64,000 bases of DNA, taken from a virus. Positions 4,625-53,027 of the stretch are shown here, in pieces. The number at the start of each line of letters is the position of its first letter. The first letter of the stretch is position 1. Made by a program: the position numbers and the translations under genes. Location: the IMG/VR virus record IMGVR_UViG_3300042197_000370. One strand, written 5' to 3'. Below the pieces are notes generated by a model. That model had not been told where the DNA came from. It saw only the letters and a list, made by a program, of their open reading frames with translations, and did not search any database.

Positions 4625-5131
4625 TTACTTTAGGAACTCTTCTATTGAGAGGTCATAATACAAACTATTTATACGGTGAACTCCAAGCAAAAACAATACA
4701 AAACTTGCTACGCTACTACCTCGACCTACGCCCCAAACTATGTTGTTTTGTCTCATGGTGTCTACCAAATACTTGAGGTATTTAAGTAATACAAACATAT
4801 CACGTTCTTGGAACATTAATAGTTCTTTTCCTGCACGTTGCAATTCTGCTTCTGTAGTACATTGATCTAATACAAATTGGGCAATATCCATATCCATATA
4901 TTCTTTTGGCATGAACCAATTGTTCCTGCACTTATCATCAAACTGTTCTACAGATATATTTTCTAGTTGATAATGTATGAGATTTGGGATGTTTTCTAAG
5001 TCTAGGTTGCGGTTAAATGTAATGGGATTTTCCACCAACACCGAATGTAACTGAAGATTAGGATTTTTAAAATAAAAATCACATAGATCCTGCTCTGAAT
5101 ATACTTGCTGACCAAATTTATCTGTTATCAT
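4625..5131 (-). CDS. dnaE: DNA polymerase III alpha-like fragment A (GRGS region)
   Basis: ELQRAGKEL...NNIVWGVGRGSSVASFVLFLLGVHRINSLYYDLSIEEFLK aligns by eye to DnaE ..[39 protein letters not shown]. Confidence 0.85.
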   Translation of the reverse strand: MITDKFGQQVYSEQDLCDFYFKNPNLQLHSVLVENPITFNRNLDLENIPNLIHYQLENISVEQFDDKCRNNWFMPKEYMDMDIAQFVLDQCTTEAELQRAGKELLMFQERDMFVLLKYLKYLVDTMRQNNIVWGVGRGSSVASFVLFLLGVHRINSLYYDLSIEEFLK

Positions 5132-5139
5132 GTACTAGC

Positions 5140-5168
5140 ATAATACATGAATATAGTGATAGTGTCAA
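5140..5168 (-). promoter_or_regulatory. sigma70-type promoter of DnaE fragment A
   Basis: TTGACA-N17-TATTAT, 8 nt from ATG. Confidence 0.75.
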
Positions 5169-5177
5169 GATAAATTT

Positions 5178-5765
5178 TTATTTTTCGGGCTCCAATACTA
5201 CCACTTTGTCTGAATTTTTAGACTTTTCTTTCCAAGTAAGACCTATCTCTGCCCATTCATCGTTAAATAGTTTAACTATCTTTTCTCTACGCTTTGGTGG
5301 TTTGGTAGTATCTTTCATTATAGTACATGGTTCATTCCACCAATGATTGCCATGGAATATGTTTTCTGCTATCTCTGGAACTACACTAAACCTAACCCCG
5401 TTACTTAACTTAGAACCCATTATTAGGTCAGTGATTGATAATCTACCTTCCATAATTGCGTTTAATTTTAATAACAATATCATAGACACTATTTGGTCAT
5501 ATGGTTCTTCGGGTGTCGTACAAACTTTAATCCCAGCCTTCTCATAATTTTCAATAACAGCAGTTTCCGATTGATGTACAAAAATGCTATTTTCTAACAC
5601 ATTACTTAAAAAGTATTCAGCCCTTTCCATCGCTACGTTCTGCTCTCGTATTGATTCTGTCTCAACTATCATTGATGCTGTTATATCATAAAAATTAATG
5701 TAAAACTTACCTTCAAAATGCGTAGCGCATTGGAAATAAAAATCTTTTTCTATTCTTGTACTCAT
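5178..5765 (-). CDS. Conserved hypothetical protein
   Basis: 195-aa ORF overlapping the upstream gene by 4 nt. Confidence 0.8.
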   Translation of the reverse strand: MSTRIEKDFYFQCATHFEGKFYINFYDITASMIVETESIREQNVAMERAEYFLSNVLENSIFVHQSETAVIENYEKAGIKVCTTPEEPYDQIVSMILLLKLNAIMEGRLSITDLIMGSKLSNGVRFSVVPEIAENIFHGNHWWNEPCTIMKDTTKPPKRREKIVKLFNDEWAEIGLTWKEKSKNSDKVVVLEPEK

Positions 5766-5995
5766 TTTTCTTTTTGAATATTAACCTGCGCATGGATGTT
5801 TTGTTTTTTCATCAGTTCATCCATTTTCTTATTATAGGCTGATTTGTAACTTTCTATAACCATATTTATCTGATGGATCATAGGCCCGTTACCCATGCGA
5901 TAGGCAAAGTTTAACTTCTTTGTCAAGTCGCCAATTTTTTCTTGTAGTTCTTCTAAGTTTTTATCTGATAAGTCGCTAATGAAAGGATGTTCCAT
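5762..5995 (-). CDS. Small coiled-coil hypothetical protein
   Basis: 77-aa helical ORF. Confidence 0.75.
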   Translation of the reverse strand: MEHPFISDLSDKNLEELQEKIGDLTKKLNFAYRMGNGPMIHQINMVIESYKSAYNKKMDELMKKQNIHAQVNIQKEK

Positions 5996-6001
5996 AAGTC
6001 T

Positions 6002-8224
6002 TTATAATGTGTACCATTGGCCTGTTCCGCCACCTGTAGTGCAGAAAAACTCTATACTAGTATTGGTAGCCAATGAATAGGCTGCATTTACGCCTAATGC
6101 ATTTATTTGCGCACCTGTTGCAGGGTATACGTTCAATGCATTTGCGCCTGCATTTCTAACAACTATTCTTAATCCTATAATTGCTGCAGGTAGAACAACA
6201 CCTGTACTTGCTGGGACAGTTGTTATAAGATTGATTGCATTTGCTAATTGTGTTCCTGTTGCCTGAGTAGTACCTGCGGCTGCTACAGTGTTAGCCACAC
6301 TAGAAACGAAATACACATTTGCTATAATGTTTGCATTTGAGAATATATTACCAGTAGCGTTTGCTAAACCACTAGAATATAAATTACCAACGTTTCCGTT
6401 ACCTGTAATAGTAGCGGATCCACCTGATAGTATTCCACCAGATACAGTTCCCGTTGCGTTTACAGAACCAACTGTAATTAGATTTCCAACTGTTGCATTA
6501 CCAGTTACAGTTAATAACCCGTTTGTAACTAAGTTGCCACCAACTACGTTACTAGTGGCTACTACTTGACCACTGGCTGATAAATTAACTACGTTAGCAT
6601 TGCCGCTTACAGATAAGTTACCAATCGTTGCTATATTTGCAACAGTTACGTTTGCACCTGTAATAGTACCTACTGCTGTTATTCCGCCAGGGGCAGACAA
6701 TAAACTAGTAGCACTATTAAATTCAAAGCCTGTGGTTGCACCAAATGCTCCTGCATTGTTATATTGAATCTGTGTGTTAGAACCTGCTACAACACCATTA
6801 CCACTACCTGCACCTGCCGACCATGCCAAATTACCAGTGCCGTCTGTAGTTAATACATAACCATTTGTACCACCACCAATTTTAACATTAGATACAGTGG
6901 CTGCATTTAATCCGTTTGGTATTAATGTACTAGGTACTAATGGTACTCTACGGAATATATCAGTACCGTCATAAACTGTCATATCAAACGCAGGAGGGCT
7001 ACCCGGTGTAAATGTCGCTACGTTTTCATATGTTGGTCCAGCAATTCCATTGTCTATAGTTTGGCTGAGTGTTATGTTAGAGCCTGCAACTGACTTGATG
7101 TAATATACACTATTTTCTGCAATGTTTGCATTGGCTGCACCGTTGCCAGTAAAGATTACTGGAAAGTTAACAGCAACGTTTGCGGTTGAAGAAGATAATG
7201 TAACGATGTTTGGTGCAGTAGTGCTGGCAACTAATTTAGGATATGAATTTGAATTATAATCATCTACTGCTACGTACATATAACGTACAGGATTTAGATA
7301 TAAATTACCTGTACTACCTGTTAAGTTTACGTTGCCGCTAGTATTAGCGTTAGCAGATATTGTAAAGTGTGTTGCGTTTGCAATATTACCTATGTAATAC
7401 GTAGCGCCGGTTGTAACATTAGATTCAAAACTAGTACCTGTAAACACTACAGGCATACCAGTATAAAGTGTAACAGTATTAGCCGTAACAAAGAAATCCG
7501 ATGAAGTTGAAGAGGTAATAGTTAATTCAGGTGCTGATAATGCATCAATACAAACAGTACCTACAGTATCACCCAATTGACCTGTTAGTGGGGGAGTTCT
7601 AGTTTGAATCTCAGTAGTTTGAAATGGTCTATTAAGAGGTGTGATTGATATTGTATTACCGCAATCTAATGTTTTCAATTGATAGTTCAATTGAGATACA
7701 CCATATGGTGCTGTAATCGTTGCTACATTAGATATATTACTATAGTTTTCAAGTAATGTTACACCAAAGTTATTGTTTGCTGAAACCACTTCTCCTGGAA
7801 ATGATATAACTGCTTCAGCATTACTAATACCCAATTTTAAAACAATTGAACTTTCTGTATTAACAGGAGCCCAACCACCAAATTGGAACGTAACGTTTCC
7901 TGCAACATTTCCATATTGCACATCGCCCAAACTAACATCAACTAAAACTGTGCCGCTTAATGCGTTACCTAAATTATATGTACTTGCTCTAAACGTTCTT
8001 GTTGTAGCATTGCTTATTAACGTGCCTGCCATGTCATTGTTTAACGTACTGTTATCCAATGCGGTTTTGAGAACGACCTTGTTCTGTAAATCCGTAATCT
8101 CTGATCCAGCAGTATTTAGGTTAGTTTTAATGGCGGCAAAGTTATCCCTAAAACCCTGAGAACTGTTGTTGATCCCGGGTACAGGATAATTTACGTCTAT
8201 TCCATTAGTGTTAATTGTACTCAT
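6002..8224 (-). CDS. Baseplate/tail-associated structural protein
   Basis: N-terminal YPVPGINNSSQGFRDNF..IK motif; G/N/T-rich beta repeats; C-terminal domain shared with the 11399-16132 fibre. Confidence 0.7.
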   Translation of the reverse strand: MSTINTNGIDVNYPVPGINNSSQGFRDNFAAIKTNLNTAGSEITDLQNKVVLKTALDNSTLNNDMAGTLISNATTRTFRASTYNLGNALSGTVLVDVSLGDVQYGNVAGNVTFQFGGWAPVNTESSIVLKLGISNAEAVISFPGEVVSANNNFGVTLLENYSNISNVATITAPYGVSQLNYQLKTLDCGNTISITPLNRPFQTTEIQTRTPPLTGQLGDTVGTVCIDALSAPELTITSSTSSDFFVTANTVTLYTGMPVVFTGTSFESNVTTGATYYIGNIANATHFTISANANTSGNVNLTGSTGNLYLNPVRYMYVAVDDYNSNSYPKLVASTTAPNIVTLSSSTANVAVNFPVIFTGNGAANANIAENSVYYIKSVAGSNITLSQTIDNGIAGPTYENVATFTPGSPPAFDMTVYDGTDIFRRVPLVPSTLIPNGLNAATVSNVKIGGGTNGYVLTTDGTGNLAWSAGAGSGNGVVAGSNTQIQYNNAGAFGATTGFEFNSATSLLSAPGGITAVGTITGANVTVANIATIGNLSVSGNANVVNLSASGQVVATSNVVGGNLVTNGLLTVTGNATVGNLITVGSVNATGTVSGGILSGGSATITGNGNVGNLYSSGLANATGNIFSNANIIANVYFVSSVANTVAAAGTTQATGTQLANAINLITTVPASTGVVLPAAIIGLRIVVRNAGANALNVYPATGAQINALGVNAAYSLATNTSIEFFCTTGGGTGQWYTL

Positions 8225-8244
8225 AATTCGTTTCCGTATAGTAT

Positions 8245-10764
8245 TTAGTATTGAGTTTCATCCGGTAAAATAGTTTTTCGTGGGAATAAAACATAAAAAT
8301 CTTTGCTGTCCAATGGGTTTGGTACAGGGCTTGCACTAGGTAATCCTGTCCATGCGGGAGGACTAACGTTCTTATCATAGTTATACGTAATGCTCTTATC
8401 TACACTAAATCTATCAATTTGGAAATTTATAGTATTCAACTTGTTCACATTACCTAACACGTTTTTCCAATTAGTTTCTATATTGCTCTTTACGATACTT
8501 GAGAAACCAGGCTTAGTATAGCAAATCACCCAACTAGGAGTAAAGCCTAATGTGTTACCATCAGCCTGCTGACTAGTCATCCATAATGGTAATAATCTAA
8601 AATTGTATTCTTGACCCAACACTTGACCAACACGATTTCTCATGTTTGGTAAACTGTTAGGATATAATATCCTAGCATAGCCCGGTGTTAAACTTGTATA
8701 GAATGTAGGGACACCCTGATAAGTCTCATAACTTGTGTATATATCAGTCACACTTGTATACCAAGGACCTTGATTCAAATCAATAAAACGTGGCCAATAT
8801 ATCTCTTCGCTTACACTCTGTCCTTTTGGATTAACAAGATTGTCAATAACTTTGCTATAAACAACTTCGTAAATAATTTCACCTTGTTCATTTCTAGCAA
8901 TAGCAGTTGCCAATTCTCCCAAAGTGATGTTTCTCCAATAATGATTCTTTGTTACTGATGAAACATATTCATCAAAATTACTTGCGTATATACCATATGC
9001 ATGTACATATGTTACATCTTGTGCTTTTCCAAAATAAGGATCATTTGGTCTATACAAATAATCAGTTGGAATTAATGTATCATTGTTTAACAATGTAGAT
9101 AATAACATTCTGTCCGATATACTAGGAGTACATTTGATGTATAGTGTATCGGTTGGCTGATTAAATTCTTGTGTGACAGTTAATGTAAAAGTCCTAGATG
9201 CATTTACAATTGAGAACTCAGGAGAGTATGCTTGAATAGTAAATGTAAATGTAGTTGATTCATTAGGATTTAAGAATGTACTTGTTGGTTGATATGCAGT
9301 TACACCTGTAATTTCACCGTTACTTAATAATGTAAGATTAGGTGGTAGTGTGCCTGATATTAATCTATAAGATAAACTTAGATCGGATGTTGCAACAACG
9401 CTCTTATTACTAATTGTTCCGTTGTATATTTGTCCTAAGTCGCTAGGAGTTATCCATTCTACTCTACCTATAACATCGTTAGATAATCTAAATGAGAATC
9501 TAAAATAAGGAGTTGATATAGATGGATTGCTTGCTTTTCTAGCGGCAACACTAAATGTATATTCACTAATGTTATCAGGTGCTATTACTGGAGTACCTGT
9601 TATCCAGCCTGTTCCTGAATCACCTGTTAATCCTAATGGTAAATCAGCAAACACGTATTCTAATGGACTATTATCAAAATCATATCCTAAAATTCTAAAA
9701 CTAAAATAGTTATCACTATCTAATTGACCTATGTAAGCATACTGTAATGGTGTATAGGTGTAACCATTACCATCTGGCGGCAACACATAGTATCCATAAT
9801 CTTGCTGGTCTTCTGTAATATTAAAAGTTTGTGGTCTAGTATTGTATACAGTTGGTATTCTATTGTTAGGAGGGTTACCAGGTCCACCTTGACTAATTGG
9901 AGTGTTTTGGTTTACTACGGTAATGTAGTAAGAACGTAAGTCACCGCCTAAAGGACTTTCTAACTTCAATGTAAAACTGTATGTTTTAATAGTAGGTTGA
10001 CCAATTGAAATCGTAGTCAGTGTTGCGGTCATTGAACCAACATTATCAAAGAGTGGAACAACAGGACCGCCAATAGTATTAGAGACTGTAAACTTACTTT
10101 CATCGATAATAGATTGTATATAATATGTTTCATTTGCGGTTAGTCCACCAAAACTTGTACCTGTAAATATTACTGGTCTACCTATTCTAAATCCGGTAGT
10201 GCTAAGACAAGTTATTGCATTGTTAGAAGCAGTAGTTGCACTAATAGTAGTAATAACAGTTGGCAAGTTAACATCAATGAATGGAGGTTCTGCATACCCT
10301 CTTATAAGACCATCGGCATTAATTTCTAAGCCAGGTGGCATTTCACCTTGAACCACTCTAATAAGTATAGGATTAGATGGAATAGGATTATTATATGCAA
10401 TGGGTAATTCAACCCAAGTACTGTCAGGAGTATTTAAAATACTACCAGCCAATGTAGTAAATTGCGGTACAGCAGAACCAGAAATACTCATTGAAAATGT
10501 TCTGTCTCTTATATTTGCATAGTTGTCTGTTGCTCTTACAACAAATGAATATGTTAAGTTATCAACTGTTTCTAATGACGGTGTACCTACTATCAATCCA
10601 TCTTCATCCATAGACACACCGTTTGGTAGTCTACCACTTATGATAGCATATGTTACACTAACTGCTGGCAATACCGCAGACGCACTTAATTGAAACGCCA
10701 TTGATATTAATGACGGATAGGTGCCTATTGATCCTGCTGAAGTATTCCATACTGGCTGTGCCAT
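8245..10764 (-). CDS. Baseplate wedge-like protein with Ig/cadherin-like (He_PIG-type) repeats
   Basis: Repeated LP(P/N)GL..G.I.G.P motifs (LPNGVSMDEDGLIVGTP, LPLGLTGDSGTGWITGTP, LPPNLTLLSNGEITG); position in the baseplate cluster. Confidence 0.7.
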   Translation of the reverse strand: MAQPVWNTSAGSIGTYPSLISMAFQLSASAVLPAVSVTYAIISGRLPNGVSMDEDGLIVGTPSLETVDNLTYSFVVRATDNYANIRDRTFSMSISGSAVPQFTTLAGSILNTPDSTWVELPIAYNNPIPSNPILIRVVQGEMPPGLEINADGLIRGYAEPPFIDVNLPTVITTISATTASNNAITCLSTTGFRIGRPVIFTGTSFGGLTANETYYIQSIIDESKFTVSNTIGGPVVPLFDNVGSMTATLTTISIGQPTIKTYSFTLKLESPLGGDLRSYYITVVNQNTPISQGGPGNPPNNRIPTVYNTRPQTFNITEDQQDYGYYVLPPDGNGYTYTPLQYAYIGQLDSDNYFSFRILGYDFDNSPLEYVFADLPLGLTGDSGTGWITGTPVIAPDNISEYTFSVAARKASNPSISTPYFRFSFRLSNDVIGRVEWITPSDLGQIYNGTISNKSVVATSDLSLSYRLISGTLPPNLTLLSNGEITGVTAYQPTSTFLNPNESTTFTFTIQAYSPEFSIVNASRTFTLTVTQEFNQPTDTLYIKCTPSISDRMLLSTLLNNDTLIPTDYLYRPNDPYFGKAQDVTYVHAYGIYASNFDEYVSSVTKNHYWRNITLGELATAIARNEQGEIIYEVVYSKVIDNLVNPKGQSVSEEIYWPRFIDLNQGPWYTSVTDIYTSYETYQGVPTFYTSLTPGYARILYPNSLPNMRNRVGQVLGQEYNFRLLPLWMTSQQADGNTLGFTPSWVICYTKPGFSSIVKSNIETNWKNVLGNVNKLNTINFQIDRFSVDKSITYNYDKNVSPPAWTGLPSASPVPNPLDSKDFYVLFPRKTILPDETQY

Positions 10765-10765
10765 A

Positions 10766-11389
10766 TTATTCCTTAAACGCTTCTAGCGCAATTTCGTAGT
10801 GATGCTTTCTATCTGCTAACCCAATAGTACCACCATTGATACGTCTGGTTAATCCCACAAAGTCATCTTTGTCACAATAGATGTTTAACTTGTTTACGTC
10901 CCAAAACCATCCTGCACTTGCTACTGCTCCTGCTGGTGTTTCTAAATAGGCTACAACTTCATCTAATGTCATATCAGATGCTTTAGCAAAACGTGTATAG
11001 TTATCACGACCTGTCAATTGAATTAACCCTCTACCTCTGAATTTGAAACCGTCACCTGATGCCTCATCACCATTCTTCATTCGATTAGCATAAACACGAT
11101 TTGCAATTTTCTCAGGTTGACGTTCATATTGTTTAGCGATTTCTTCGTTAGGAAAATACTTCTTAAAAGTATTCACTAATCCTTTAGCACCATAATTTAA
11201 ATTTTCTTTTACTGCGGTAAATCCACCACTCTCATGTGCGGTTTGTGCTAAGAATGCCGCAATACGTTTTGGGTTCTCAAACAAATCATAATGTTTGCCC
11301 ACTTCGTTGAATGAATCTACGTATGGTACTAAAACACTTTGTTTTGTTTTAGGGCATATCTTTTGTAAAAGTTCTAATGTAACAAACAT
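10766..11389 (-). CDS. Glycoside hydrolase family 19 lysozyme/endolysin
   Basis: RIAAFLAQTAHESGGF, FRGRGLIQLTGRDNY, TRRINGG. Confidence 0.93.
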   Translation of the reverse strand: MFVTLELLQKICPKTKQSVLVPYVDSFNEVGKHYDLFENPKRIAAFLAQTAHESGGFTAVKENLNYGAKGLVNTFKKYFPNEEIAKQYERQPEKIANRVYANRMKNGDEASGDGFKFRGRGLIQLTGRDNYTRFAKASDMTLDEVVAYLETPAGAVASAGWFWDVNKLNIYCDKDDFVGLTRRINGGTIGLADRKHHYEIALEAFKE

Positions 11390-11398
11390 TCTTTATCC

Positions 11399-22409: not shown

Positions 22410-25400
22410 TTATAGTTCACCAGTGTTGAATATACGTACAGGGATGTAGATAAACTCAGCAGCCTTGACTGGTTCAAGCGCAACGTCAATCCACAATTCA
22501 TTACGATCTATTCTAGCAGGTGTGTTGTTTGAATCATCACATACTACTAGATAATCATAGATGCCTCGTTTTGCAACTAGATCCAAGAACAACGTATCAA
22601 CAACACCTGAAATTTCAGTTCTTGTTAATGCATCATTTGGTTCGAATACGAACGGTCTCGCCGCAATTGTCAACTGTCTACGTACATATGCTACAAGTCT
22701 TGCAACGTTAATTCTATCAAGTGCTGATAGACTATTGAAACTTGACTTGTTACCATAGTTCAACAATCCATTTCCTGTAAAAAATACAAGAGGATTGATG
22801 AAGTTTGTATACAATACATCACGTATACCTACTCTTGTGCGTGTTGTTACAAACTCGCCAGTAGCACTATCAACATAACCAATGTTAGTTGCATTATCAA
22901 TTAGACCACGGCGTGTGCCTGCTGGTGCTAACCAAGGATAAGCGATAGTGTCATTTCTCAGGAATGTTCTAATCATCATGTGTGATGGGGGAACTGCTAC
23001 TAGATTGCCATTAACTGGTTCTGGAGCAATACCACTTGGGTAGAACAATCCCATATAAGTGCTACGTGTTACGCAACCATCTTCACCTGTGCTTGTTGCA
23101 CCTGCAGCGTTAGTTGCCCATGCTTGAATTGCAGTAGCATTATCTGGGAGACGCATTGGTGTGTCACCGATAATGAATGCAGTGTCACCTCTATCAGCAT
23201 TCAATACAACCATGTTAGGTTGTAGTTCAGGATAGTTAGGTGTAGCCATCAAGTTGAAGAATTGATCCTCATCGCGGATATCTGTATTAGTATCAATTGC
23301 TACACGTAATGCTTGTACAACCATTGCTCTTTGAGCCTTGCGACCCATGAAAGGAGCACCGTTTGATTGCAAGCCACTTGCTGATACCCATGCATCTCTT
23401 TGTGTTGGAAGAGTTTCATCTGGGAATCTGTCATTGTTAAAGTAGTTTACGCTATACTGCTTAACATTGTAACCTGAACGTCTTGTATTGAACAACAAAA
23501 TACCTGTTGGGTATAGAGTTGGCTCAGGTGCATCTAAGTCTAAGTAATCGCTAGTTAATAAACTTACGATACTTGGAATTGGATCATCTGCTGGGTTAGT
23601 TGTGCCGTTTGGTGCCCAACGTGCATCAGCAAACAAGATACCACTTGAACCAATGTTATCAGTGTTATCAATTCTTACCCACTTGTCAGTGAGGTCTACA
23701 TTCTGCCAACGATAAATTAATGGATAATTTTCAAGGTCAGTTGTGTTGATCCAAAGATCACCATACGCAAGAGCAGTACCATCTGACTGAGTAGTTGGCT
23801 CACTTGCGCTTACAATTGGACCTGCTGGGTCAGTTGTATTTGGAATTGATGTTGATGGGAAACCATTAAAGTCATAACCAATGTTCTGATAACCATACCA
23901 GTCACCATTAAAGTTTACCATAATGTCTGCTTGGTTAACTACACTGTAGAACCAGTTAGTACCATTTGCAGGTGCTGCTACTGGAGCGCCTTCATTTGCT
24001 GTGTAGTCTAATGGGTACCAGTTACTTAACATTGTGGTGTATGGTATGCCAGCGCCTTGACCTGAAATGTATGACACTTCAAGTACTTGTCCACCTAAAC
24101 CAACTGCTGTTACAACTACTGTTAAGTTGTTGCCAGGAGTTGTACCTCCCATGTCTGCACCATTAAATGTTACTTCATCGCCTACTGCATAACCTGATCC
24201 GCCATTTGGAATGACAGTTGGGTTGACGCTATAAACTTGATGATCGTTAGTCACAGTAATCTGTAAACTTGTACCAACACCTGTTGTTGATGCTTGACTT
24301 GGTGTATAAGTGATCATAGACCATGGGCCGTATTTTACACCATATGGTGTGCTACCAGCAGTAAATCCTGCAGTGCTCATTAAACCACTTGAATTACCTT
24401 TGCTACCACCTGTTTGTATAATATCATTAATGATAATTACACCACCTTCAGTGTGACTAATTTGTAACGCACCTGAATCAGTTACGCTACATGTAGTGAA
24501 GGGCACACCTGCTGCTGACCATGCGGTAACGAAATCAGTAGCATCAGTGCTATCTGCTAAATTGAAAGTATATGTACTTGACAAAGCATTGCTGCCTGGT
24601 AATGATACTTGAATTAATGCAGTGTATGGGCCATTAGTGAAGTTAGGTGCAGTATTAGTACCTGTTACTACTGTTGGACCCTCTGCAATTCTTTCCCATA
24701 AGTAAACTGGGCCTTGATTATATTCACCATTAAAATTGTACTGTGCGTATATTGTGCCTGCAGGAATCGCTTCTCCGCCTGTTGCGTCTAATGATGCAAT
24801 AACTGCCCAATCACTCTGTGATAACGTAATTGTCTTTGGCAACCATGCTTTTGTTAAATCATTCCAAACAGACACTACTGGTAATAAACCACCGCCAGTG
24901 CTACCAACCTTAAACCAAACTGAACCAGTTGGTCTTGGGTAAGTTTGACTTGACTGCCATAATGGCTGCTGTGCTGAAGTACCATATGCGAATCCAGGCT
25001 GATAATATGTGCCTGCAGTTACGCCTAAGTCTGCTAACAATGTACCTGTACCACTGACTGTTAAGTAGTAAGGAATTGTTGGATCAATACCGCCGTCTCC
25101 TGCTGTCTGCTTACTGAAAAGATTCATTTTTCCTGATTGTACGGAAGCAGATAGATATGTCCAACCCAATGCGTTAATATCATTTACAAGAACTGACAAC
25201 ACGTTATTTGGTGAAGGCTGAACTGTAATAGTTGCATTGTTATCACCACTCATGTTGATAGTAATTGTATCACCAGGTGTTAATGTTGGGTTAGAATTAG
25301 TTGCTTGAACTGTTGGCCATGCACCTAACCATGAACCGCTTCCAACTGGAACCCAAGTATTGCTTGGTGTTTTATAGAAGAATTCAGTTGCCGTAACGTT

Positions 25401-25994
25401 TGATGGTCTTGCGGCGTCATTATACACTGTGTTAACAGCATAGTCACCGATCTGACCAAGTGATGCTACTGGAACACTACCTGCAATTAATGCTGAATCA
25501 CTAATTACGATAGGAGTTTGTACTACGAATTGACCTGTTGTTGCGTTGAATTCATAGATACCCCATGTAGATGTAGTAGTATCTAACCAATATGTTCCGT
25601 CTGTTGGATCACCTGTTGGGCGACCTGTAGAACCAACTAAACTTGCTAAGTCAATGTCTGCTCTCATTGTATATACAGTATTGGTTGCACCCAATGCTGA
25701 ATATGCGGCAAGCAAACCATACTCGTTCAATTCGTAGCCCTGAATAGGAGTACCATTTGAAGTTGTATAGAAGAAAGGATTACCATACAATGCAACCAAA
25801 TCACGCTGACTTGTAACTCTGTAGAGTTTATTAGCGTTAGCCGCAGTTGTACCTGGTGCTACTCTAGTGCTTGTAGGGTCTGCCTTATTCTGCGCTGTTG
25901 CTAACAGAATGAATGGAATTGAGTTTGTTGGCGCTGGAAGATATTGAGCTTGGTCAACGATTGTTACTTCTACGCCAGGAGATGCTAGTGCCAT
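22410..25994 (-). CDS. Tail sheath protein (gp18-like, 1194 aa with insertions)
   Basis: MALASPGVEVTIVD start; PWLAPAGTRRG, LDRINVARL, FVFEPND, PVKAAEFIYIP C-terminal motifs. Confidence 0.95.
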   Translation of the reverse strand: MALASPGVEVTIVDQAQYLPAPTNSIPFILLATAQNKADPTSTRVAPGTTAANANKLYRVTSQRDLVALYGNPFFYTTSNGTPIQGYELNEYGLLAAYSALGATNTVYTMRADIDLASLVGSTGRPTGDPTDGTYWLDTTTSTWGIYEFNATTGQFVVQTPIVISDSALIAGSVPVASLGQIGDYAVNTVYNDAARPSNVTATEFFYKTPSNTWVPVGSGSWLGAWPTVQATNSNPTLTPGDTITINMSGDNNATITVQPSPNNVLSVLVNDINALGWTYLSASVQSGKMNLFSKQTAGDGGIDPTIPYYLTVSGTGTLLADLGVTAGTYYQPGFAYGTSAQQPLWQSSQTYPRPTGSVWFKVGSTGGGLLPVVSVWNDLTKAWLPKTITLSQSDWAVIASLDATGGEAIPAGTIYAQYNFNGEYNQGPVYLWERIAEGPTVVTGTNTAPNFTNGPYTALIQVSLPGSNALSSTYTFNLADSTDATDFVTAWSAAGVPFTTCSVTDSGALQISHTEGGVIIINDIIQTGGSKGNSSGLMSTAGFTAGSTPYGVKYGPWSMITYTPSQASTTGVGTSLQITVTNDHQVYSVNPTVIPNGGSGYAVGDEVTFNGADMGGTTPGNNLTVVVTAVGLGGQVLEVSYISGQGAGIPYTTMLSNWYPLDYTANEGAPVAAPANGTNWFYSVVNQADIMVNFNGDWYGYQNIGYDFNGFPSTSIPNTTDPAGPIVSASEPTTQSDGTALAYGDLWINTTDLENYPLIYRWQNVDLTDKWVRIDNTDNIGSSGILFADARWAPNGTTNPADDPIPSIVSLLTSDYLDLDAPEPTLYPTGILLFNTRRSGYNVKQYSVNYFNNDRFPDETLPTQRDAWVSASGLQSNGAPFMGRKAQRAMVVQALRVAIDTNTDIRDEDQFFNLMATPNYPELQPNMVVLNADRGDTAFIIGDTPMRLPDNATAIQAWATNAAGATSTGEDGCVTRSTYMGLFYPSGIAPEPVNGNLVAVPPSHMMIRTFLRNDTIAYPWLAPAGTRRGLIDNATNIGYVDSATGEFVTTRTRVGIRDVLYTNFINPLVFFTGNGLLNYGNKSSFNSLSALDRINVARLVAYVRRQLTIAARPFVFEPNDALTRTEISGVVDTLFLDLVAKRGIYDYLVVCDDSNNTPARIDRNELWIDVALEPVKAAEFIYIPVRIFNTGEL

Positions 25995-33019: not shown

Positions 33020-34396
33020 ATGGCACAATTTTTTTACGACAATCAGATACGCAGATTTTTAATTCAATTTGCAAAAATATTCAGCAATTGGTATGTAACT
33101 AAGGGCAAAGACCCTAACGGCAATGATATATTAATTCGTGTTCCAGTAATGTATGGTGATAGCAGTAGACAAGCATCAACCATCATTGCTAATAATAGTG
33201 CAAGTAATTTACCAAGTGCGCCATTGATTACGTATTACATAACAGCACTAGAATACGACCAAAGACGTTTGCAGGATCCTACATTCGTAGAAAAACTACA
33301 AGTACGCCAACGTCAATATGACCCTGACACAGGAACATATGACACTACACAAAGTCAAGCATTTACGATTGAACGCTTGATGCCTGCACCGTATACGTTA
33401 AGAGTTACTGTAGACTTTTGGACTACGAACTATAATCAAAAATTAGAAATTATCGAACAGTTGGGTGCTATATTCAACCCAGCACTTGAAATACAAAGCA
33501 CAGATAACTTTATTGACTGGACTTCACTAAGTGTAGTATTCCAAGATGGACTGACATTTACTAGCAGAACTATCCCACAAGGTACAGGTAACCCAATCGA
33601 TGTTATGACATGGAAGTTCTATATGCCTATATGGATTAGTACTTCAGTCAAACTTAAGAAAATGGGCGTTATTCATAAAGTTATCGCTAGCATATTCAAA
33701 GGTAAAGCATACCAAGATATACAAGATGATGATTTATTATTAGGTACACGACAAAAGATTACTCCATTTGGATACAAAGTATTGTTGATAGGTAACACAT
33801 TACAGTTATTACCACAGAATGAAGCATTCTATCCACCTAATACTAATTTAGATAATCCTCCCCCACCCAACACAGATTTGTATTGGAGTAGTTTATTAAA
33901 CACGTATGGTAAAGTAAAGCCGGGAGTAAGTCAAATATGGTTGCAAAATCCATATATGGAAGATGATATCGTTGGTACTATAGTTCCTGATCCATTAGAT
34001 GACAGACTATTAATTTATAACATTGACCCTGATACACTTCCTCAAAACACTCTTTCGCCAGTTAACAGTGTTATAAACCCATTACTAACTGGACCTAATG
34101 CAGGTTTGCCGGGCCCAAATAACGGGGTAAGATATTTGTTAGTTGACAGAATAGGAACTGATGGTACTAATACAATTGCATGGGGTAACTTAGTTGCTAA
34201 TGCAAACGACATTGTAGAATACAATGGCAGCACTGGTCAGTGGGAAGTTTCTTTTGATAGTCAAGCATCTACAACTGTAGAATATGTCACGAATTTAACT
34301 ACCGGTATTCAATATCGCTATGTTAACACAGAAGGACAGTGGATGAAATCATACGAAGGTTGGTATGATCAGGGAGATTATTCTATAGTGATTTAA
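33020..34396 (+). CDS. Tail sheath stabiliser/terminator (gp15-like, extended)
   Basis: FFYDNQIRRFLIQF, RVPVMYGD, QKLEIIEQLGAIFNP. Confidence 0.82.
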   Translation: MAQFFYDNQIRRFLIQFAKIFSNWYVTKGKDPNGNDILIRVPVMYGDSSRQASTIIANNSASNLPSAPLITYYITALEYDQRRLQDPTFVEKLQVRQRQYDPDTGTYDTTQSQAFTIERLMPAPYTLRVTVDFWTTNYNQKLEIIEQLGAIFNPALEIQSTDNFIDWTSLSVVFQDGLTFTSRTIPQGTGNPIDVMTWKFYMPIWISTSVKLKKMGVIHKVIASIFKGKAYQDIQDDDLLLGTRQKITPFGYKVLLIGNTLQLLPQNEAFYPPNTNLDNPPPPNTDLYWSSLLNTYGKVKPGVSQIWLQNPYMEDDIVGTIVPDPLDDRLLIYNIDPDTLPQNTLSPVNSVINPLLTGPNAGLPGPNNGVRYLLVDRIGTDGTNTIAWGNLVANANDIVEYNGSTGQWEVSFDSQASTTVEYVTNLTTGIQYRYVNTEGQWMKSYEGWYDQGDYSIVI

Positions 34397-43273: not shown

Positions 43274-43276
43274 GAA

Positions 43277-46640: not shown

Positions 46641-48034
46641 CTGAATCTACGAATTTTAGTTTTTGATTCTGCTACTTTCTTTGCAGGTTCTGCTGTAGCA
46701 GGTCTATCAACGAATCCGGGCTTTTCTGCTGGCGCCGCACTAGGTGCTTTAGCATCAAGTCCTTGTGTAGGAGTACCTGTTGTCAATTCTTTCATTGTTT
46801 CAGCATAGAGTTTAGCATCGACACCCTTAAGTCTAGTCATTGTACTCTTCACCAACTCAGCCATTTGATGACTATTCATAGCAGTTTGGGCTGGTTGGGC
46901 AGCCGCTTGTGACTGTGCAGCCTGTGCTGGTTCTGCAGCCTTTTCGGCGCCTGCTGTAGAGGCTGGATCTGCACCTTTACCTACAATATTTGCGGCGCCT
47001 GCAGGAACATTACCCTTAGACACTGCATAACTTACTTGTGCTAATTTTTCTAATGCTGCCTGACCTCTGTCTTTACCGTAAGTTGCTTGTACTGCATCAA
47101 TACCCTTATCAATAACTGCTTGATTGACAGTATAGTTGACACCCTTCATATACTGTGGGTACCATTGATTTTTTAAGTATTGTGAAATACTAATCTTACC
47201 AGTATCACCTGCTTCTAAAATGCTTTCGAAAATGTTATTAAGTTTTACATAACGTGATTCTACTATCATGTATTTCTTGCTAGTAGACTCTAACAACACT
47301 GATAATCCTAAATCAGTCCATGTCAAACCTGCACCTTCAATCAGCATATTCAAGTAATAAATCTTCCAACCTTCCTTCAATCCTGCTGGGTTCAAGTCAA
47401 GACGTTGACCTGCACGTAGTTTCTGAATTGCGGCAGTTGCAAAATTAGGATCAGCATTTTTCTTTAATACATATTCCGCAGTCTTTAATGCGTTACCCCA
47501 CTCAGGGTAATCTTTACGGTCTGCCATAAAGTTGACTAGTTCTTTAGTCAAAGCAATCTTTTGCGCCTTATCAGTTACCTGACTTAATTGCTGTGACACA
47601 CCCTTAACATAGTTGTTTAAATTCTGTGTAGACTGTTGCTGTTGCTTATACTTTCCAGTAGCCATGTTTGTGCCTGTTTTAGGCAATCCGCCGGCTGCAG
47701 GAGTAGTTGTTGCAGTAGGAGTAGTTGGTGCTGTAGGTGCTGTTGCACCGGGTACAGTTGGTTCGGGCTTTACCCCTGCTGGGTTAACTGGAGTAGCAGT
47801 TTTAGGTTTAGCATTTCTTAATTTGGGGTCTACTAAACCACCCTCAATAGATGTTTCTAGTGAAGATATCGCATCACCTACGAAATCCTTAATGAACATA
47901 TCCTGAGCCATTTGCTGTTGTACTGTTTTACCACCTGCTTGGCCGGTCATTTTCTTAAGAGCAGCGGAACCGTAGTCTCCGATTAAACTGCTTAGTCTAA
48001 GTTCTTCTAGTTTTTTAAATTCATCTAGTTTCAT
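46637..48034 (-). CDS. Internal head protein, A/P/T-rich linkers
   Basis: Several hydrophobic-x-E sites (LKE, LIE, LLE, IVE, IFE, ILE, VAE). Confidence 0.5.
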   Translation of the reverse strand: MKLDEFKKLEELRLSSLIGDYGSAALKKMTGQAGGKTVQQQMAQDMFIKDFVGDAISSLETSIEGGLVDPKLRNAKPKTATPVNPAGVKPEPTVPGATAPTAPTTPTATTTPAAGGLPKTGTNMATGKYKQQQQSTQNLNNYVKGVSQQLSQVTDKAQKIALTKELVNFMADRKDYPEWGNALKTAEYVLKKNADPNFATAAIQKLRAGQRLDLNPAGLKEGWKIYYLNMLIEGAGLTWTDLGLSVLLESTSKKYMIVESRYVKLNNIFESILEAGDTGKISISQYLKNQWYPQYMKGVNYTVNQAVIDKGIDAVQATYGKDRGQAALEKLAQVSYAVSKGNVPAGAANIVGKGADPASTAGAEKAAEPAQAAQSQAAAQPAQTAMNSHQMAELVKSTMTRLKGVDAKLYAETMKELTTGTPTQGLDAKAPSAAPAEKPGFVDRPATAEPAKKVAESKTKIRRFR

Positions 48035-48037
48035 GTG

Positions 48038-48271
48038 TTATTTCCTTAAGGATTTCGAAAATCTTTTTTGATCTTTACTTTTTATAGCACTAAGGAGTTT
48101 CTTTTCCAGCAGTTCCGCCTTTTCGGGGTCATATTTCCTATTGATTAATTCAATAAGATTAATGGCGCTGGTTATCACATTTAGAGCCCTGGATTCAATT
48201 ACGTGATTGAAATCTCGGTTAGCCCCAATGGATTCTAATTCTTCCAATAGGCTTCTTGTTTTCTTTTGCAT
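48038..48271 (-). CDS. Small conserved hypothetical protein
   Basis: 77 aa; TAAATA at 48291-48296. Confidence 0.75.
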   Translation of the reverse strand: MQKKTRSLLEELESIGANRDFNHVIESRALNVITSAINLIELINRKYDPEKAELLEKKLLSAIKSKDQKRFSKSLRK

Positions 48272-48314
48272 ATGTTTAAGATCCTATTAGTATTTAGTCA
48301 AAACGACAGCAATT

Positions 48315-49721
48315 CTATTTCTTTAGAGAATTTAATAATGACTTAAGTTTAGTACTTTGAATGTCGGCCACAACACGTTTTTCTTCTGGTTCTACGGTAT
48401 TTTGAATAGTATCATTAACTGTACTTGTAGCCTTAATTTTATTCATTATATCGTTGGCCGACGGCTGTGCGTGCCGTTGTCTTTCATGACCCTCAGGATC
48501 GGGGTCTGTAATACGTAGTGTTTCAGTGTTGAATTCCAATTCTATCTTCTGACCTACACCTGAACTACTACGTGTTTTCATTAATTGTAATTGATACTGG
48601 CCACGCTCACGCATGCTACGGCTAGTAAAAATACCAAAAACATTGTCCGCAGTATTAATCTTACTAATACCACCTGAGATATGACTGTGATCAAATTCGA
48701 TTTCTTCAACTGCTGATCTGTTAAGTTGACTTGCTGTGACGAATAAGACATTTAATTCCTTTGCTAGATTTCTAAGTTCTTCAGATACATACTTATCCTT
48801 TACGAACAAGTCGCTTGGACTTACTTTTGCGCTGACTGGCATGATCAAATCAAGATAATCGATACATAAGAAATCAATTTTCATTCCTGTTTGTATCTGC
48901 AATTCTTTACAGTATGCTCTAATATCATTAACTGTGCTTTGCGCAGGGAGATACTTAATACGTAACTTACCTGCTTTCTTAGCAACCATTTTAACTTTCA
49001 TTTCAACATTATCAATGTCTTTGAAAATTTCACGGCTACTAGTCTCAGTCATCATACTGTCAATACGCATACTACATAGACCTTCACTAAGTTCTAATGT
49101 GATGTATACACCACTTAGTCCTGCTTGTGCCCAATTGACTGCTAGATTCTGCATAAACAAACTTTTGCCTGATCCACTACCACCTGCAAAAATTTGTAGT
49201 TCTCCTCGATTGAAACCACCATATAGTTTTTGATCCATACTAGGCCAACCTGTACTGTTCTGTCCATTATTACTTTTTAGTGCCATAAGTCTTGCTCGTG
49301 GATCAGCAAAGTAATCAGTACCCATATCACGCTGTAGTGAAATCTGAACTGCGTCCTTAACCAGTTTCTCTACAGGGTCATACTCGCCCTTCTCAAGCAA
49401 ATCGGCTGCTTTAAGAATAGCCCTCTCAAGTTCTTGTCGTTTAGTGAATGCTTCAAATTCTTCTAAGAACCATTCATAATGTCCATCATCTAATTCTGCT
49501 ATAGTTTCTATTTCAATACCTGTAGTAGCCTTAATCTGTACAGGCTCAGGCATCACATTATATTTCTTACTATGCTCTGCTATAAATTCTGCAACTGGAC
49601 GCAATTTTCTATCAAAGTTCTGCGAGTTCATAATATTCATGACCCGAGTATATAATTCTGCGTTAGTTACCATCATGCGCAAAAACAATGTTTGCACATC
49701 TACATTAAACTCTTTTATCAA
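48315..49721 (-). CDS. DnaB-like replicative helicase (gp41-like)
   Basis: GGSGSGKS, ITLELSE, IDYLDL, TASQLNR, QLMKTR. Confidence 0.94.
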   Translation of the reverse strand: MIKEFNVDVQTLFLRMMVTNAELYTRVMNIMNSQNFDRKLRPVAEFIAEHSKKYNVMPEPVQIKATTGIEIETIAELDDGHYEWFLEEFEAFTKRQELERAILKAADLLEKGEYDPVEKLVKDAVQISLQRDMGTDYFADPRARLMALKSNNGQNSTGWPSMDQKLYGGFNRGELQIFAGGSGSGKSLFMQNLAVNWAQAGLSGVYITLELSEGLCSMRIDSMMTETSSREIFKDIDNVEMKVKMVAKKAGKLRIKYLPAQSTVNDIRAYCKELQIQTGMKIDFLCIDYLDLIMPVSAKVSPSDLFVKDKYVSEELRNLAKELNVLFVTASQLNRSAVEEIEFDHSHISGGISKINTADNVFGIFTSRSMRERGQYQLQLMKTRSSSGVGQKIELEFNTETLRITDPDPEGHERQRHAQPSANDIMNKIKATSTVNDTIQNTVEPEEKRVVADIQSTKLKSLLNSLKK

Positions 49722-50673
49722 GTTTCCTCCGTTGCATTTCTACTTTAATCTTACTATTTGTTGCGTTTTGTAATATACTTAGTAACGTAGGCAGTCGCCC
49801 GTATTTAACCACTGCATCGTTAACGTCTTTGCAATTATCCCAATTGGGTATACTAACATGAAAGCCCAATTCTAATGCTCTATCACATACTGTTAATCCT
49901 GTTTTATCTTGGTCAGGTACAAATATAATTTTACGATTTAATTTTTGTAACACCTCAACCTGATCATCATTTATTGTATTGTGTGTTAATGCGCAACAAT
50001 TTAAACTTAGTGCGTCAAATATGCCTTCTACTAAGATACACACTTCCCACTCAGGTCTTTGTAAATCATAACCAAATATATAACCGGGCTGTTGCTCGTT
50101 AATGAATTTAGGCTTACGATCATCTAAGTATCTGCTAGTATGTCCTACAATTTTATTTTCAAATGTGAAGGGTATGATAATTCTATTTGCTTGACGACCT
50201 TCAGCATCAGGTGTTACTAAGAAAGGATATTCGTTGTGCTTGATACCTCTCTTATTCAAATACTCTACAAATACATTGTGAACAGGATTAAATGGATCGA
50301 TGATTTCACCCTCAGGCAAATGCATCTCTTTAAATTTAACCTTAGACTTTTCTTTTTTAACTTTTACAAAGTCAAGCAAATCTTTATGTTGTAAACTTTC
50401 TAAGTTCCAACGATTAATTTGTTGCTCATCAATACCGCACCATTGTAAAAACTGTTTTGTGTTTCGTGTTATACTCTTGCCTAACATGAAGCCACATTTG
50501 AATCCACAGTTGAAACAATGAAAAGACCAATTTTCACCATCTTGCTTGATACCACCTCGTTGTCTTTTATCGGGTTTATGCCCACGATTGTGACAGCACG
50601 GCGCATTGAAACTATACCAACCACTTTGTGTATGTTTCTTTCTACCGGGGATAACTGTAAGGATATCAAGCAT
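49705..50673 (-). CDS. DNA primase (gp61-like)
   Basis: N-terminal Zn finger (CCH..HCFNC), TOPRIM VEGIFD and PDQD. Confidence 0.92.
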   Translation of the reverse strand: MLDILTVIPGRKKHTQSGWYSFNAPCCHNRGHKPDKRQRGGIKQDGENWSFHCFNCGFKCGFMLGKSITRNTKQFLQWCGIDEQQINRWNLESLQHKDLLDFVKVKKEKSKVKFKEMHLPEGEIIDPFNPVHNVFVEYLNKRGIKHNEYPFLVTPDAEGRQANRIIIPFTFENKIVGHTSRYLDDRKPKFINEQQPGYIFGYDLQRPEWEVCILVEGIFDALSLNCCALTHNTINDDQVEVLQKLNRKIIFVPDQDKTGLTVCDRALELGFHVSIPNWDNCKDVNDAVVKYGRLPTLLSILQNATNSKIKVEMQRRKLDKRV

Positions 50674-50679
50674 CATGTA

Positions 50680-50707
50680 ATTATAACATGATCCTGCGTA
50701 AAATCAA
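50680..50707 (-). promoter_or_regulatory. sigma70-type promoter of primase
   Basis: TTGATT-N16-TATAAT with TGn extension; 6 nt to ATG 50673. Confidence 0.65.
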
Positions 50708-50721
50708 CGTATGTTGGATAC

Positions 50722-51504
50722 TTATCTTGCCAAAATGTTAGTGACTGCGCCCGTGTTACTGGTGAACACCATACGCACAAATGGATGATACCCTCTAATA
50801 GTATATCCAAATGTATCAGTAACATTACTGTATGCAGTGGTAGTGATAGGATACCACTCACCACCTTGGTTATCTACGGATCCTTCAATAGTTACGTCAC
50901 CATTGAACTCTGTATAATGAGCCTGTAATGTTAATATTGGATTATCTGTGGTATTAATTATGCTACTATAATAGGTGTTAGCGTTTGGCAATACATTGCT
51001 AATACTATTGTTGGCATCCAAATTAGGGAAAGGTTGGCCAGTAGGAATAGTAACTGATTCGGATGGTACGAATGCAGGAAGAACACTATTAACGATATTC
51101 ATCTCACCACGTGCTCCTGCGTTTTGATCTACAAATACAGGATAGTCAAACTGCCCTACTGGAATCTCTAATGAATAATAGCATTTCTGTGCATCAATGT
51201 CCTCTAGGTCTGCGGCGTTCAATTGTAATACTGCTAGTCCATTAACAGGAAGGGTCAACGTAAGTGCTTTTCTTAGTAATACTTGAGTACCATTATAACT
51301 AATGATTCTACAGGTAATCTCTTTTCCTGTAATATCTACGGGTTTCTGCTCTTGGTTCAAAAACTGAAACTGGAGTTGGTTATCAACTCCCTTATGTAAG
51401 GTTAGGGGTTTGGCATAGACTGGCATATATTTCCTCGGCGAGTTACCTGAAAGTAGTACAACGATGTTACGTTGAAAATAATAGAATACTGATGTAGAGT
51501 ACAC
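50722..51504 (-). CDS. Virion/baseplate beta-sandwich protein
   Basis: LTLHKGVDNQLQFQFLNQEQKPVDITG BppU-like pattern; GTG start with SD; TAAATA at 51523-51528. Confidence 0.55.
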   Translation of the reverse strand: MYSTSVFYYFQRNIVVLLSGNSPRKYMPVYAKPLTLHKGVDNQLQFQFLNQEQKPVDITGKEITCRIISYNGTQVLLRKALTLTLPVNGLAVLQLNAADLEDIDAQKCYYSLEIPVGQFDYPVFVDQNAGARGEMNIVNSVLPAFVPSESVTIPTGQPFPNLDANNSISNVLPNANTYYSSIINTTDNPILTLQAHYTEFNGDVTIEGSVDNQGGEWYPITTTAYSNVTDTFGYTIRGYHPFVRMVFTSNTGAVTNILAR

Positions 51505-51596
51505 AAGTTGGCTCCTTACACATATTTATTCTATATTTTATTAAAATATTTGTTTCGGATAAGGGTGATTAAATAACAGCAGTAATTAAGAAAAAG

Positions 51597-51977
51597 ATGA
51601 TTTCACACGATTTTTTCAAAAAGTTAAGCGAGAACCACCCCTTTATAACAGTCTGTTCCTATGCCAGTCAAGATTATGTAGGTATTATACAGAATAGGGA
51701 CGATACTTGTACATCATTATACGACTATGGCGCAATCGTTGATAATGACTTAAAGACTAGATTCCTAGAACTAGGCGATACTTGGTGGTGGGAAAGCAAT
51801 AGACTAGTACCCATAAATTTATTCCTTAAGGAAGAATGGATGGTTTTTAAACCCTACCTAAGAACCTTCAATAATAAGAGTTTAGAGATAATACATGGAC
51901 CTGTGTGTAGTATGATGGAACTACATAAACGCAGGTCTAAACGTAGAAGCATAACGTTAGTAAAACGTATGCCTTAA
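51597..51977 (+). CDS. Conserved hypothetical protein
   Basis: 126 aa; TAAATA at 51570-51575. Confidence 0.75.
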   Translation: MISHDFFKKLSENHPFITVCSYASQDYVGIIQNRDDTCTSLYDYGAIVDNDLKTRFLELGDTWWWESNRLVPINLFLKEEWMVFKPYLRTFNNKSLEIIHGPVCSMMELHKRRSKRRSITLVKRMP

Positions 51978-52456
51978 CCCTTACGCTTGCGTCTTTCTTT
52001 CGCTAGTTGTAGTCCTAGTTTAGCAACTTTAGTATCAAAGCATATACCATTTAAATGGTCAAACTCATGTTGAAATACCCTCGAGGGTAAATCTCCTAAT
52101 TCTTGTTCGACTACATTCCCTGACAATTGCTGATACTTGACCTTAACTGTCTCTGGTCTTTTAACTGTTAACCAAAGTTTAGGGAAACTCAAACAACCCT
52201 CTTGGGCACGATTCTCCCCACTTGATTCTAGTATCTCTGGATTGATACAGACAATTAATTTCTCTTGGTTGCCCATAAGAAATATACGTTTCTTTACTCC
52301 ACATTGCGGTGCTGCCAATCCTATGCCACCGCTCTCAAACATTATCTTAGTCATAGCCTTGACTAACTCAGTGGGGTCTCCGTCTGTTTCAAAGTTCCAT
52401 GGTTCTGAAACTTCTCTTAACTGCGGATCATCTTCTTTAAGTAATTTGATTTCCAT
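51974..52456 (-). CDS. def: Peptide deformylase
   Basis: GGIGLAAPQ, EGCLS, QHEFDHLNG. Confidence 0.96.
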   Translation of the reverse strand: MEIKLLKEDDPQLREVSEPWNFETDGDPTELVKAMTKIMFESGGIGLAAPQCGVKKRIFLMGNQEKLIVCINPEILESSGENRAQEGCLSFPKLWLTVKRPETVKVKYQQLSGNVVEQELGDLPSRVFQHEFDHLNGICFDTKVAKLGLQLAKERRKRKG

Positions 52457-53027
52457 GTTCCCTCAACAAATTCATATGTACTACAACTAACTGTGCATAA
52501 GCAACAGCATGACTACGCTTAAAACTATAACCAGTGTGATCTTTGTCCCACACAGTTTGATTTATATCTTTATATGTTCTACCAATTAAATGTCTCTTTG
52601 CAGGTCTAATGACTGCAAGAAACATTGCCAATCTAGGTATACTATTAATAGACTCAGGCATCTTTAACAATGTATCATATTGATTACCTAAGTGTATCAA
52701 CTGTTCTACAATATTTCTATGATTCAACATAGTCCAGTCGGGTTCACGCATCAGTTCTATCAAATGCTCTTCACTACGAACCTGATTATAAATGTGAACG
52801 TTTAGTAAGTCTAATTTAAAATATCCACGATCCTCAGCAACTTCATAATGTAGTGCTGACATATTATTAATAGGATCATATGGAATTTCTGTAACATAGA
52901 TACCAGTGGGATGTTTGCGTATAGGGGTAATATTACGCATACTGGCAGGAATATGTTTTATCAATGATAAAACTTTATCTCTATCACCTACGTCAATATC
53001 AATATCACTTTGAAATTTCATAACCAC
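52437..53027 (-). CDS. dnaE: DNA polymerase III alpha-like fragment B (catalytic aspartates)
   Basis: SDIDID (PDFDVD), RKHPTGIY (KHAGGVV), GYFKLDLL (GLVKFDFL), LAVIRPA (ALFRPG), GYSFKRSHAVAY (GYGFNKSHSAAY). Confidence 0.88.
   Translation of the reverse strand: MVMKFQSDIDIDVGDRDKVLSLIKHIPASMRNITPIRKHPTGIYVTEIPYDPINNMSALHYEVAEDRGYFKLDLLNVHIYNQVRSEEHLIELMREPDWTMLNHRNIVEQLIHLGNQYDTLLKMPESINSIPRLAMFLAVIRPAKRHLIGRTYKDINQTVWDKDHTGYSFKRSHAVAYAQLVVVHMNLLREHGNQIT

Follow-up and report, generated by a model that had tools for sequence, protein, structure and literature searches.

In a 64,000-nucleotide (nt) stretch of viral DNA (IMG/VR record IMGVR_UViG_3300042197_000370, hereafter the window), which belongs to a contig of 184 kb, we considered two open reading frames (ORFs), ORF A and ORF B, that judging from their sequences almost certainly encode the two subunits of a split minimal DNA polymerase III (Pol III) alpha module. 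Precisely, A would represent the N-terminal half, binding the nucleoside triphosphate (NTP), and B the C-terminal half, binding metal and template. The best overall explanation, in which we place good confidence, is that they constitute the split minimal Pol III alpha that forms a core gene pair of the group 2.2 jumbo phages (Rak2/121Q/PA5oct/Atu_ph07-like). Pairs of this kind have been known since 2021, when they were described from sequence in group 2.2 jumbo phages by Iyer, Anantharaman, Krishnan, Burroughs and Aravind (Viruses 13:63, PMC7824862, section 3.4.1 and Fig. 3b), and the window comes from a further, uncultured member. The additions made here are the natural fused forms of the two halves and the conserved order of B, then A, then the family B polymerase (PolB), neither of which is mentioned in the passages of PMC7824862 on the pair.

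The two halves and their junction

ORF A was matched in Pfam by PF07733 (Pol III alpha NTPase domain) with 38.9 bits, the cut-off being 23.9 (E 1e-9), its residues 90-167 lying on positions 17-94 of the 260 of the profile, and by PHROG 11127 "DNA polymerase" with an E-value of 4e-39. It was aligned without gaps on Taq Pol III alpha 377-454 and on E. coli DnaE 349-392, with GRGS on the GS phosphate-binding motif and the C-terminal EEFL on FERFL. In an alignment of 24 diverse rows, down to 27% identity, W72, P75, D82, R99, E103, G134-V-G-R-G-S139, S143, H152 and F166 were invariant, and each stand-alone A terminated with EF[LIF][KR]. In the window, A ends with ...GVGRGSSVASFVLFLLGVHRINSLYYDLSIEEFLK-stop, and its TAA codon is followed by the GGAG ribosome-binding site of the next gene. 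The first ~70 residues are variable and gave no match of any kind. As aligned, A carries the predicted strand-GS loop-helix element of a Pol-beta-type nucleotidyltransferase palm, the element that in C-family polymerases binds the triphosphate.

The second half was numbered from ATG 53021, since this codon forms an ATGA with the stop of the 74-aa ORF upstream and since the gene calls on identical metagenome contigs are of 194 aa, with the start MKFQSDIDID. So numbered, B starts five residues ahead of the DxD motif and contains DIDID (D6, D8, D10), KHPTG, KLDLL (K69/D71), IRP (R139-P140) and FKRSHA (K168/H171). No Pfam family was found for B, which was matched by PHROG 11778 with an E-value of 4e-56, and 386 clusters of B at 50% identity were obtained in a scan of 1.84 billion representatives. 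In 82 full-length representatives, 29-59% identical to the B of the window, D6, D8, K69, D71, R139 and P140 were invariant, and D10, H37, G40, K142, K168 and H171 were conserved in more than 90% of the rows of the same alignment.

Used as a single sequence against the PDB sequences, B gave no polymerase match, and DnaE was found by profile only: the profile of the 82 homologues gave nine matches, all to Pol III alpha, the best with an E-value of 2e-5. By this profile B 4-20 was placed on E. coli DnaE 399-417 (MPDFDVDF), B 55-140 on 539-641 (with K69/D71 corresponding to K553/D555 and IRP to FRP) and B 152-180 on 740-769 (FNKSHSAAYA). The AlphaFold2 model of B had a predicted local distance difference test score (pLDDT) of 94.9 and a predicted template modelling score (pTM) of 0.88. 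With this model, Pol III alpha was ranked first by Foldseek, weakly (E ~1e-2), and VIA-align gave Z values of 9.8-6.3 for twelve DnaE/PolC chains, the best unrelated fold having a Z of 3.8. In these alignments 181-190 of the 194 residues of B were spread across E. coli 397-781, Taq 458-841 and PolC 968-1296, and C-family polymerases were the only structural matches over the full length of the model. Profile and model agree in that B corresponds to the predicted palm from the DxD strand onward, together with the core of the fingers with RP and KxSHA, and B holds all three putative metal-binding aspartates and the lysine that accompanies them.

The two ends are collinear with DnaE, A ending at about E. 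coli 393 and B beginning at about 397, with nothing missing between them, so that the palm with the GS motif and the three catalytic aspartates, as in the canonical DnaE/PolC enzymes, is present across A and B. In terms of the Pol-beta-type catalytic fold the break would be internal, with the GS element and its helix on one side and, on the other, the strand bearing the first two carboxylates. What has been lost lies within and after B: there are ~35 residues for E. coli 418-538 and ~12 for 642-739, B having lost about 190 of the 384 DnaE residues over which it extends, and the protein ends ~25 residues past KxSHA, at about E. coli 781 of 1160. The thumb is absent, as is an insert of ~100 residues in the fingers. 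In Pfam, neither ORF matched PHP (PF02811) or a Hint/intein family at E<=1, and neither matched the finger family PF17657, an OB family or a clamp- or tau-binding region. Moreover, the similarity of A to DnaE persists to its last residue and only five residues of B precede DxD, so there is no room for an N-intein of ~100 aa or a C-intein of ~35 aa.

The ratio of nonsynonymous to synonymous substitution rates (dN/dS) was 0.05 for A and 0.01-0.14 for B, and both genes are under strong purifying selection. Homologues of each half are counted in thousands in metagenomes, and together with these values they mark the two ORFs as real genes, far beyond chance. By sequence, a complete set of palm catalytic elements is divided over two strongly constrained chains.

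Much of this had been proposed in an initial annotation of the window, made from its letters, which described the two ORFs as abutting halves of a miniaturised C-family core. The adjacent ends on DnaE, with no middle piece missing, and the fused proteins described below, in which PF07733 extends across the junction, bear this out. The collinear junction, the lack of an intein family and the position of B upstream of A likewise agree with its exclusion of a frameshift, an insertion or an intein, and the Pfam searches with its statement that PHP, OB and intein domains are lacking. GRGS and the three aspartates, whose conservation it had made a test of the proposal, are retained, as GVGRGS in all 24 rows of A and as D6, D8 and D71 in all 82 rows of B. 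The two ORFs are as it described them, and its combined length of about 364 aa becomes 362 aa with B taken from ATG 53021 rather than from GTG 53027.

Compared with DnaE and PolC (E. coli 2HNH/5FKU, Taq 2HPI/3E0D, Geobacillus PolC 3F2B), the pair shares in collinear order the GS motif, DxD, the third aspartate preceded by a lysine, RP and KSHA. It differs from them in that its residues are distributed over two chains, whereas the bacterial enzymes have 1160-1440 aa in one, in that PHP, thumb, clamp-binding motif, OB and tau-binding region are lacking, and in that the equivalent of the arginine of ERFL is a glutamate. Cyanobacterial dnaE-n/dnaE-c is the classic case of a polymerase whose gene is divided into two that lie far apart, a full-size enzyme being restored by protein trans-splicing. 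That is also a C-family polymerase from two distant genes; here, in contrast, there is no intein, the break would be within the catalytic palm instead of elsewhere in the protein, and the product is a miniature. A jumbo-phage polymerase made of separately encoded proteins is also presented, in the passages considered, in a report on chimalliviruses (bioRxiv 2026, PMC13648687); that enzyme differs in being of family B and not C, in belonging to nucleus-forming group 1 phages and in being the main replicase.

Co-occurrence of the halves and fused forms

Deposited phage records were matched by A in 96 cases and by B in 96, and both halves were present in every relative or record that was cross-checked. 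Vibrio phage 2.275.O, XaC1 and Phosso were listed for B and were outside the 40 records listed for A; in these phages A was found by a profile search. The best cultured relatives are PA5oct-like phages, Atu_ph07, SCTP-2 and 121Q-like phages, with 38-51% identity, and no near match of the window at the DNA level was found among deposited phages. With PA5oct, Atu_ph07, SCTP-2, 121Q and similar phages as best matches and a gene order around the halves that is shared with relatives, the phage belongs among the group 2.2 jumbo myoviruses with a T4-like core; the genes of the window include a T4 gp15-like gene, a tail sheath gene, a UvsW-like gene and dnaB.

In three independent metagenomic proteins of 375-376 aa the two halves are naturally fused. 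In the first, P0289 (375 aa), A (8-180) is followed by a linker of 11 residues and by B (190-371), and PF07733 spans the junction; the other two, from other samples, have the same A-linker-B arrangement and are 78-81% identical to it. On a tree of the B halves the fused forms are one clade, with a value of 100 in the Shimodaira-Hasegawa-like approximate likelihood ratio test (SH-aLRT), inside a 12-row clade (99) of stand-alone B that is itself nested in further stand-alone clades. For any root placed outside that small clade, the fusion is secondary. We also considered whether, in the stand-alone-B relatives closest to the fused forms, A lies immediately upstream of B; in L047, the one close relative with legible gene context, the 200-aa ORF at that place is unrelated to A. 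That the fusion restores the order of DnaE, through a short linker, is an argument for the two proteins acting as one module, with their free ends near each other.

The pair described in PMC7824862 is alike, in the passages on it, in consisting of two stand-alone proteins whose genes are far apart, one with the N-terminal, NTP-binding part and one with the C-terminal part that binds Mg2+ and template, without other Pol III domains in either protein. The same passages place a family B polymerase in the same genomes, which here was seen in relatives; the operon of B in the window differs in additionally holding a Rv2179c-like exonuclease and a peptide deformylase.

Gene order, other polymerases and neighbouring genes

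In the direction of transcription B is upstream of A, 47.3 kb away on the same strand (Table 1), and the halves are on one strand in every relative checked. From B to A the distance is 30-31 kb in the Vibrio phage and in 121Q-like phages, 33.5 kb in XaC1 and 43.7 kb in PA5oct-like phages; SCTP-2 has 116 kb between the two, and one IMG/VR contig of 215 kb has 71 kb. B is upstream of A in all lineages except the two alphaproteobacterial phages, where a separation of 182 kb (Atu_ph07) or ~245 kb (Phosso) is too large for the halves to be ordered. A block of genes (helicase ... B, antisense small ORF, structural protein, primase, DnaB) is conserved in PA5oct, Paride, XaC1, Phosso and the Vibrio phage, and the place of B beside primase and DnaB is kept in phages of Pseudomonas, Xanthomonas, Vibrio and Sinorhizobium. 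The neighbourhood of A (A, a small ORF and a Cpn10-like chaperonin) is the same in PA5oct (EST35_0288 to EST35_0290), the halves of this phage being EST35_0288 for A and EST35_0220 for B. The neighbourhoods of both halves are conserved across phages of four bacterial orders.

Table 1. Position, strand and supporting matches of the two halves and of neighbouring genes in the window
Feature	Position	Strand	Description	Evidence
Half A	4625-5131	minus	168 aa, GVGRGS at 134-139, ends EEFLK-stop	PF07733, phrog_11127, Taq DnaE alignment
Half B	52437-53021	minus	194 aa from ATG 53021, frame open from GTG 53027	phrog_11778, profile, AlphaFold2, VIA-align
GroES/Cpn10-like co-chaperonin	3895-4260	minus	two genes downstream of A	PF00166, E 8e-6
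DnaB-like replicative helicase	48315-49721	minus		PF03796, E 6e-22
DnaG-type primase (Toprim)	49705-50676	minus		PF13155, E 5e-7
Peptide deformylase	51974-52456	minus	overlaps B 3' end by 20 nt	PF01327, E 8e-41
74-aa ORF	53018-53242	minus	ATGA-coupled to B	weak paralogue of 53786-54055
Stand-alone DEDDh exonuclease (Rv2179c-like)	53239-53784	minus	two genes upstream of B	PF16473, E 1e-31

A family B polymerase was found in all six relatives tested, that is in Paride and in all five IMG/VR contigs carrying A, at ~30-35 kb downstream of A, a position that in this phage is beyond the left end of the window. Among 15 ORFs of the window scanned with Pfam, including ten of the longest, no PolB was found; the 740-aa ORF at 6002-8224 was outside this set. 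In Paride, a complete relative, no intact dnaE and no PHP or finger family were found, a single match to PF07733 being obtained. The PolB gene of Paride (88.9-92.7 kb of the record) extends over two frames, of 825 and 379 aa, as do those of the IMG/VR contigs G005 and G006 (563 and 373 aa), and is a single frame of 904-910 aa in G003, G004 and G007; the two-frame form is likely due to an intervening element (intron, homing endonuclease or intein).

The gene order confirms the remark of the initial annotation that the C-terminal part comes first in transcription order, and its mention of similar fragments in other jumbo myoviruses holds for the 96 phage records per half and for the pair as published in the relevant section of PMC7824862. 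The survey of co-occurrence and split point that it proposed gave both halves in each relative checked and stand-alone A proteins that all end alike. An intact dnaE elsewhere, which would have spoken against its proposal, was not found in the complete relative Paride, and its question about a family B polymerase is answered by the six relatives. Primase, helicase and DEDDh exonuclease are, by Pfam, the neighbours that it had named, and the exonuclease, which it proposed as a possible partner, is lineage-specific.

The DEDDh exonuclease, which stands beside B also in the related metagenome contigs L042 and L045 (the latter of 333 kb), is absent from four of five relatives and in Phosso, where it is present, is more than 100 kb from B. 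It was therefore rejected as a dedicated proofreader acting as a general partner, and is a neighbour confined to particular lineages rather than a fixed partner of B. The same small gene as in the window precedes B in L042 and L045. The two small ORFs that flank the exonuclease gene, 53018-53242 and 53786-54055 (minus strand), are weakly related paralogues (37 residues aligned at 30% identity, pairwise E-value of 2e-5) and share a W-C-x3-F-G-[DE]-R...W motif, with no Pfam family. The peptide deformylase gene sits between B and the conserved antisense ORF, a place where it is absent in PA5oct, XaC1, Phosso and Vibrio phage 2.275.O, and is an insertion relative to the cultured phages. The antisense ORF itself (51597-51977, plus strand, 126 aa, no family), just downstream of B, is kept at the same place in PA5oct, Paride, XaC1, Phosso, Vibrio phage 2.275.O and L045.

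Further upstream, 54030-56078 (minus strand) encodes a protein of 682 aa with a radical SAM domain (122-267) and a PhyH-type 2-oxoglutarate dioxygenase domain (557-654), and in L045 a separate PhyH protein of 230 aa is found there. The structural block that separates B from A holds an unusually long tail sheath protein (22410-25994, minus strand, 1194 aa), of which only the C-terminal sheath domain was recognised, and a T4 gp15-like tail sheath stabiliser (33020-34396, plus strand). A late switch-on of the enzyme by a different timing of A, in the structural region, and of B, in the replication region, was also considered. It is unsupported by the PA5oct RNA-seq paper, in which middle and late regions are barely distinguishable and structural and DNA-metabolism genes rise together.

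Proposed activity and alternative explanations

We propose that A and B would associate non-covalently and that the active site would form only across their interface; that this assembly is obligate appears likely. The product would be a small, non-proofreading, poorly processive or distributive, template-directed polymerase adding nucleotides to a primer, and for the pair's activity we lean, with modest conviction, towards DNA-templated DNA synthesis. It may work beside the family B replicase, in primer extension at the primase-helicase or in gap filling and repair. In PMC7824862 the module is described as occurring beside a family B polymerase, with a possible action on one strand or in repair. 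Primer extension with a hand-off to PolB is attractive because of the fixed place of B beside primase and DnaB; gap filling or repair is equally plausible. That the pair is an essential second replicative polymerase rather than an accessory for repair, which would take the RNA primer from the adjacent primase-helicase, extend it briefly and hand it to the family B replicase, we regard as rather unlikely. If it were so, the phage would have its own version of the DnaE-to-PolC (or Pol alpha-to-Pol delta) hand-off, made by a two-chain enzyme of 41 kDa.

Several points weigh against this proposal. With no thumb and with truncated fingers, a primer-template grip like that of DnaE is doubtful. R452 of Taq, the arginine of ERFL, is replaced by Glu165 in A; if this arginine contacts the incoming deoxynucleoside triphosphate (dNTP), as we presume, the nucleotide pocket would differ from that of DnaE. 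As the window is of 64 kb, the presence of PolB and the absence of further Pol III pieces rest on the relatives. Our literature searches found no bench characterisation of the split Pol III alpha family, and direct evidence of binding between A and B or of polymerisation by the pair was found neither in this analysis nor in the literature searched.

The missing thumb, the loss of much of the fingers and the glutamate at the ERFL position would also fit a composite Pol-beta-fold nucleotidyltransferase that is no DNA-templated DNA polymerase, such as a terminal transferase or end-modifier, an enzyme that tails or repairs RNA, or one that makes a nucleotide signal. CCA-adding enzymes, MenT toxins and terminal uridylyl transferases do appear, far down the Foldseek list, and the relatives already own a complete family B replicase. 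On the other hand, the finger motifs RP and KxSHA, which are specific to DnaE, are invariant or nearly so in B, the structural matches over its full length are restricted to C-family polymerases and its position by primase and DnaB is conserved, so that we consider such a transferase improbable. It is far less probable that B alone is a self-sufficient minimal polymerase, with A separate or accessory. All three catalytic aspartates are in B, which is predicted to fold confidently by itself, and the two genes, with 30 kb to over 200 kb between them, are not transcribed together as neighbours; yet B is without the GS phosphate-binding element that defines the fold, A supplies exactly this and nothing else recognisable, the end of A and the start of B are at adjacent DnaE positions, natural fusions follow the DnaE order and both halves are in every relative checked.

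Two further explanations were considered. A joining of the halves after translation by a split intein, or of their transcripts, has its precedent in cyanobacterial DnaE; against it, stand-alone A stops at EF[LIF][KR], B starts five residues before DxD and no intein family was matched, which leaves it a negligible chance. The other regards the ORFs as decaying pieces of a bacterial dnaE that had been captured and was broken by rearrangement, as their small size and scattered location might suggest. This is scarcely credible, given intact frames under the dN/dS values reported above, catalytic residues that are invariant across the clusters of B and gene neighbourhoods conserved in phages of four bacterial orders.

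For the window, the assignment is mainly of use in annotation: names can be given to two "hypothetical" genes, and the presence of the pair places the phage in the group 2.2 jumbo phages. The natural fused forms, besides offering a single-chain construct for biochemistry, suggest that in the assembled enzyme the C-terminus of A is close to the N-terminus of B. If active, the pair would be much smaller than any other C-family polymerase known, and a rare enzyme with a Pol-beta-type catalytic sheet divided between two polypeptides. It is a core gene pair of a very large and globally distributed group of giant phages, and its presumed role beside a complete family B replicase would bear on how these phages replicate.

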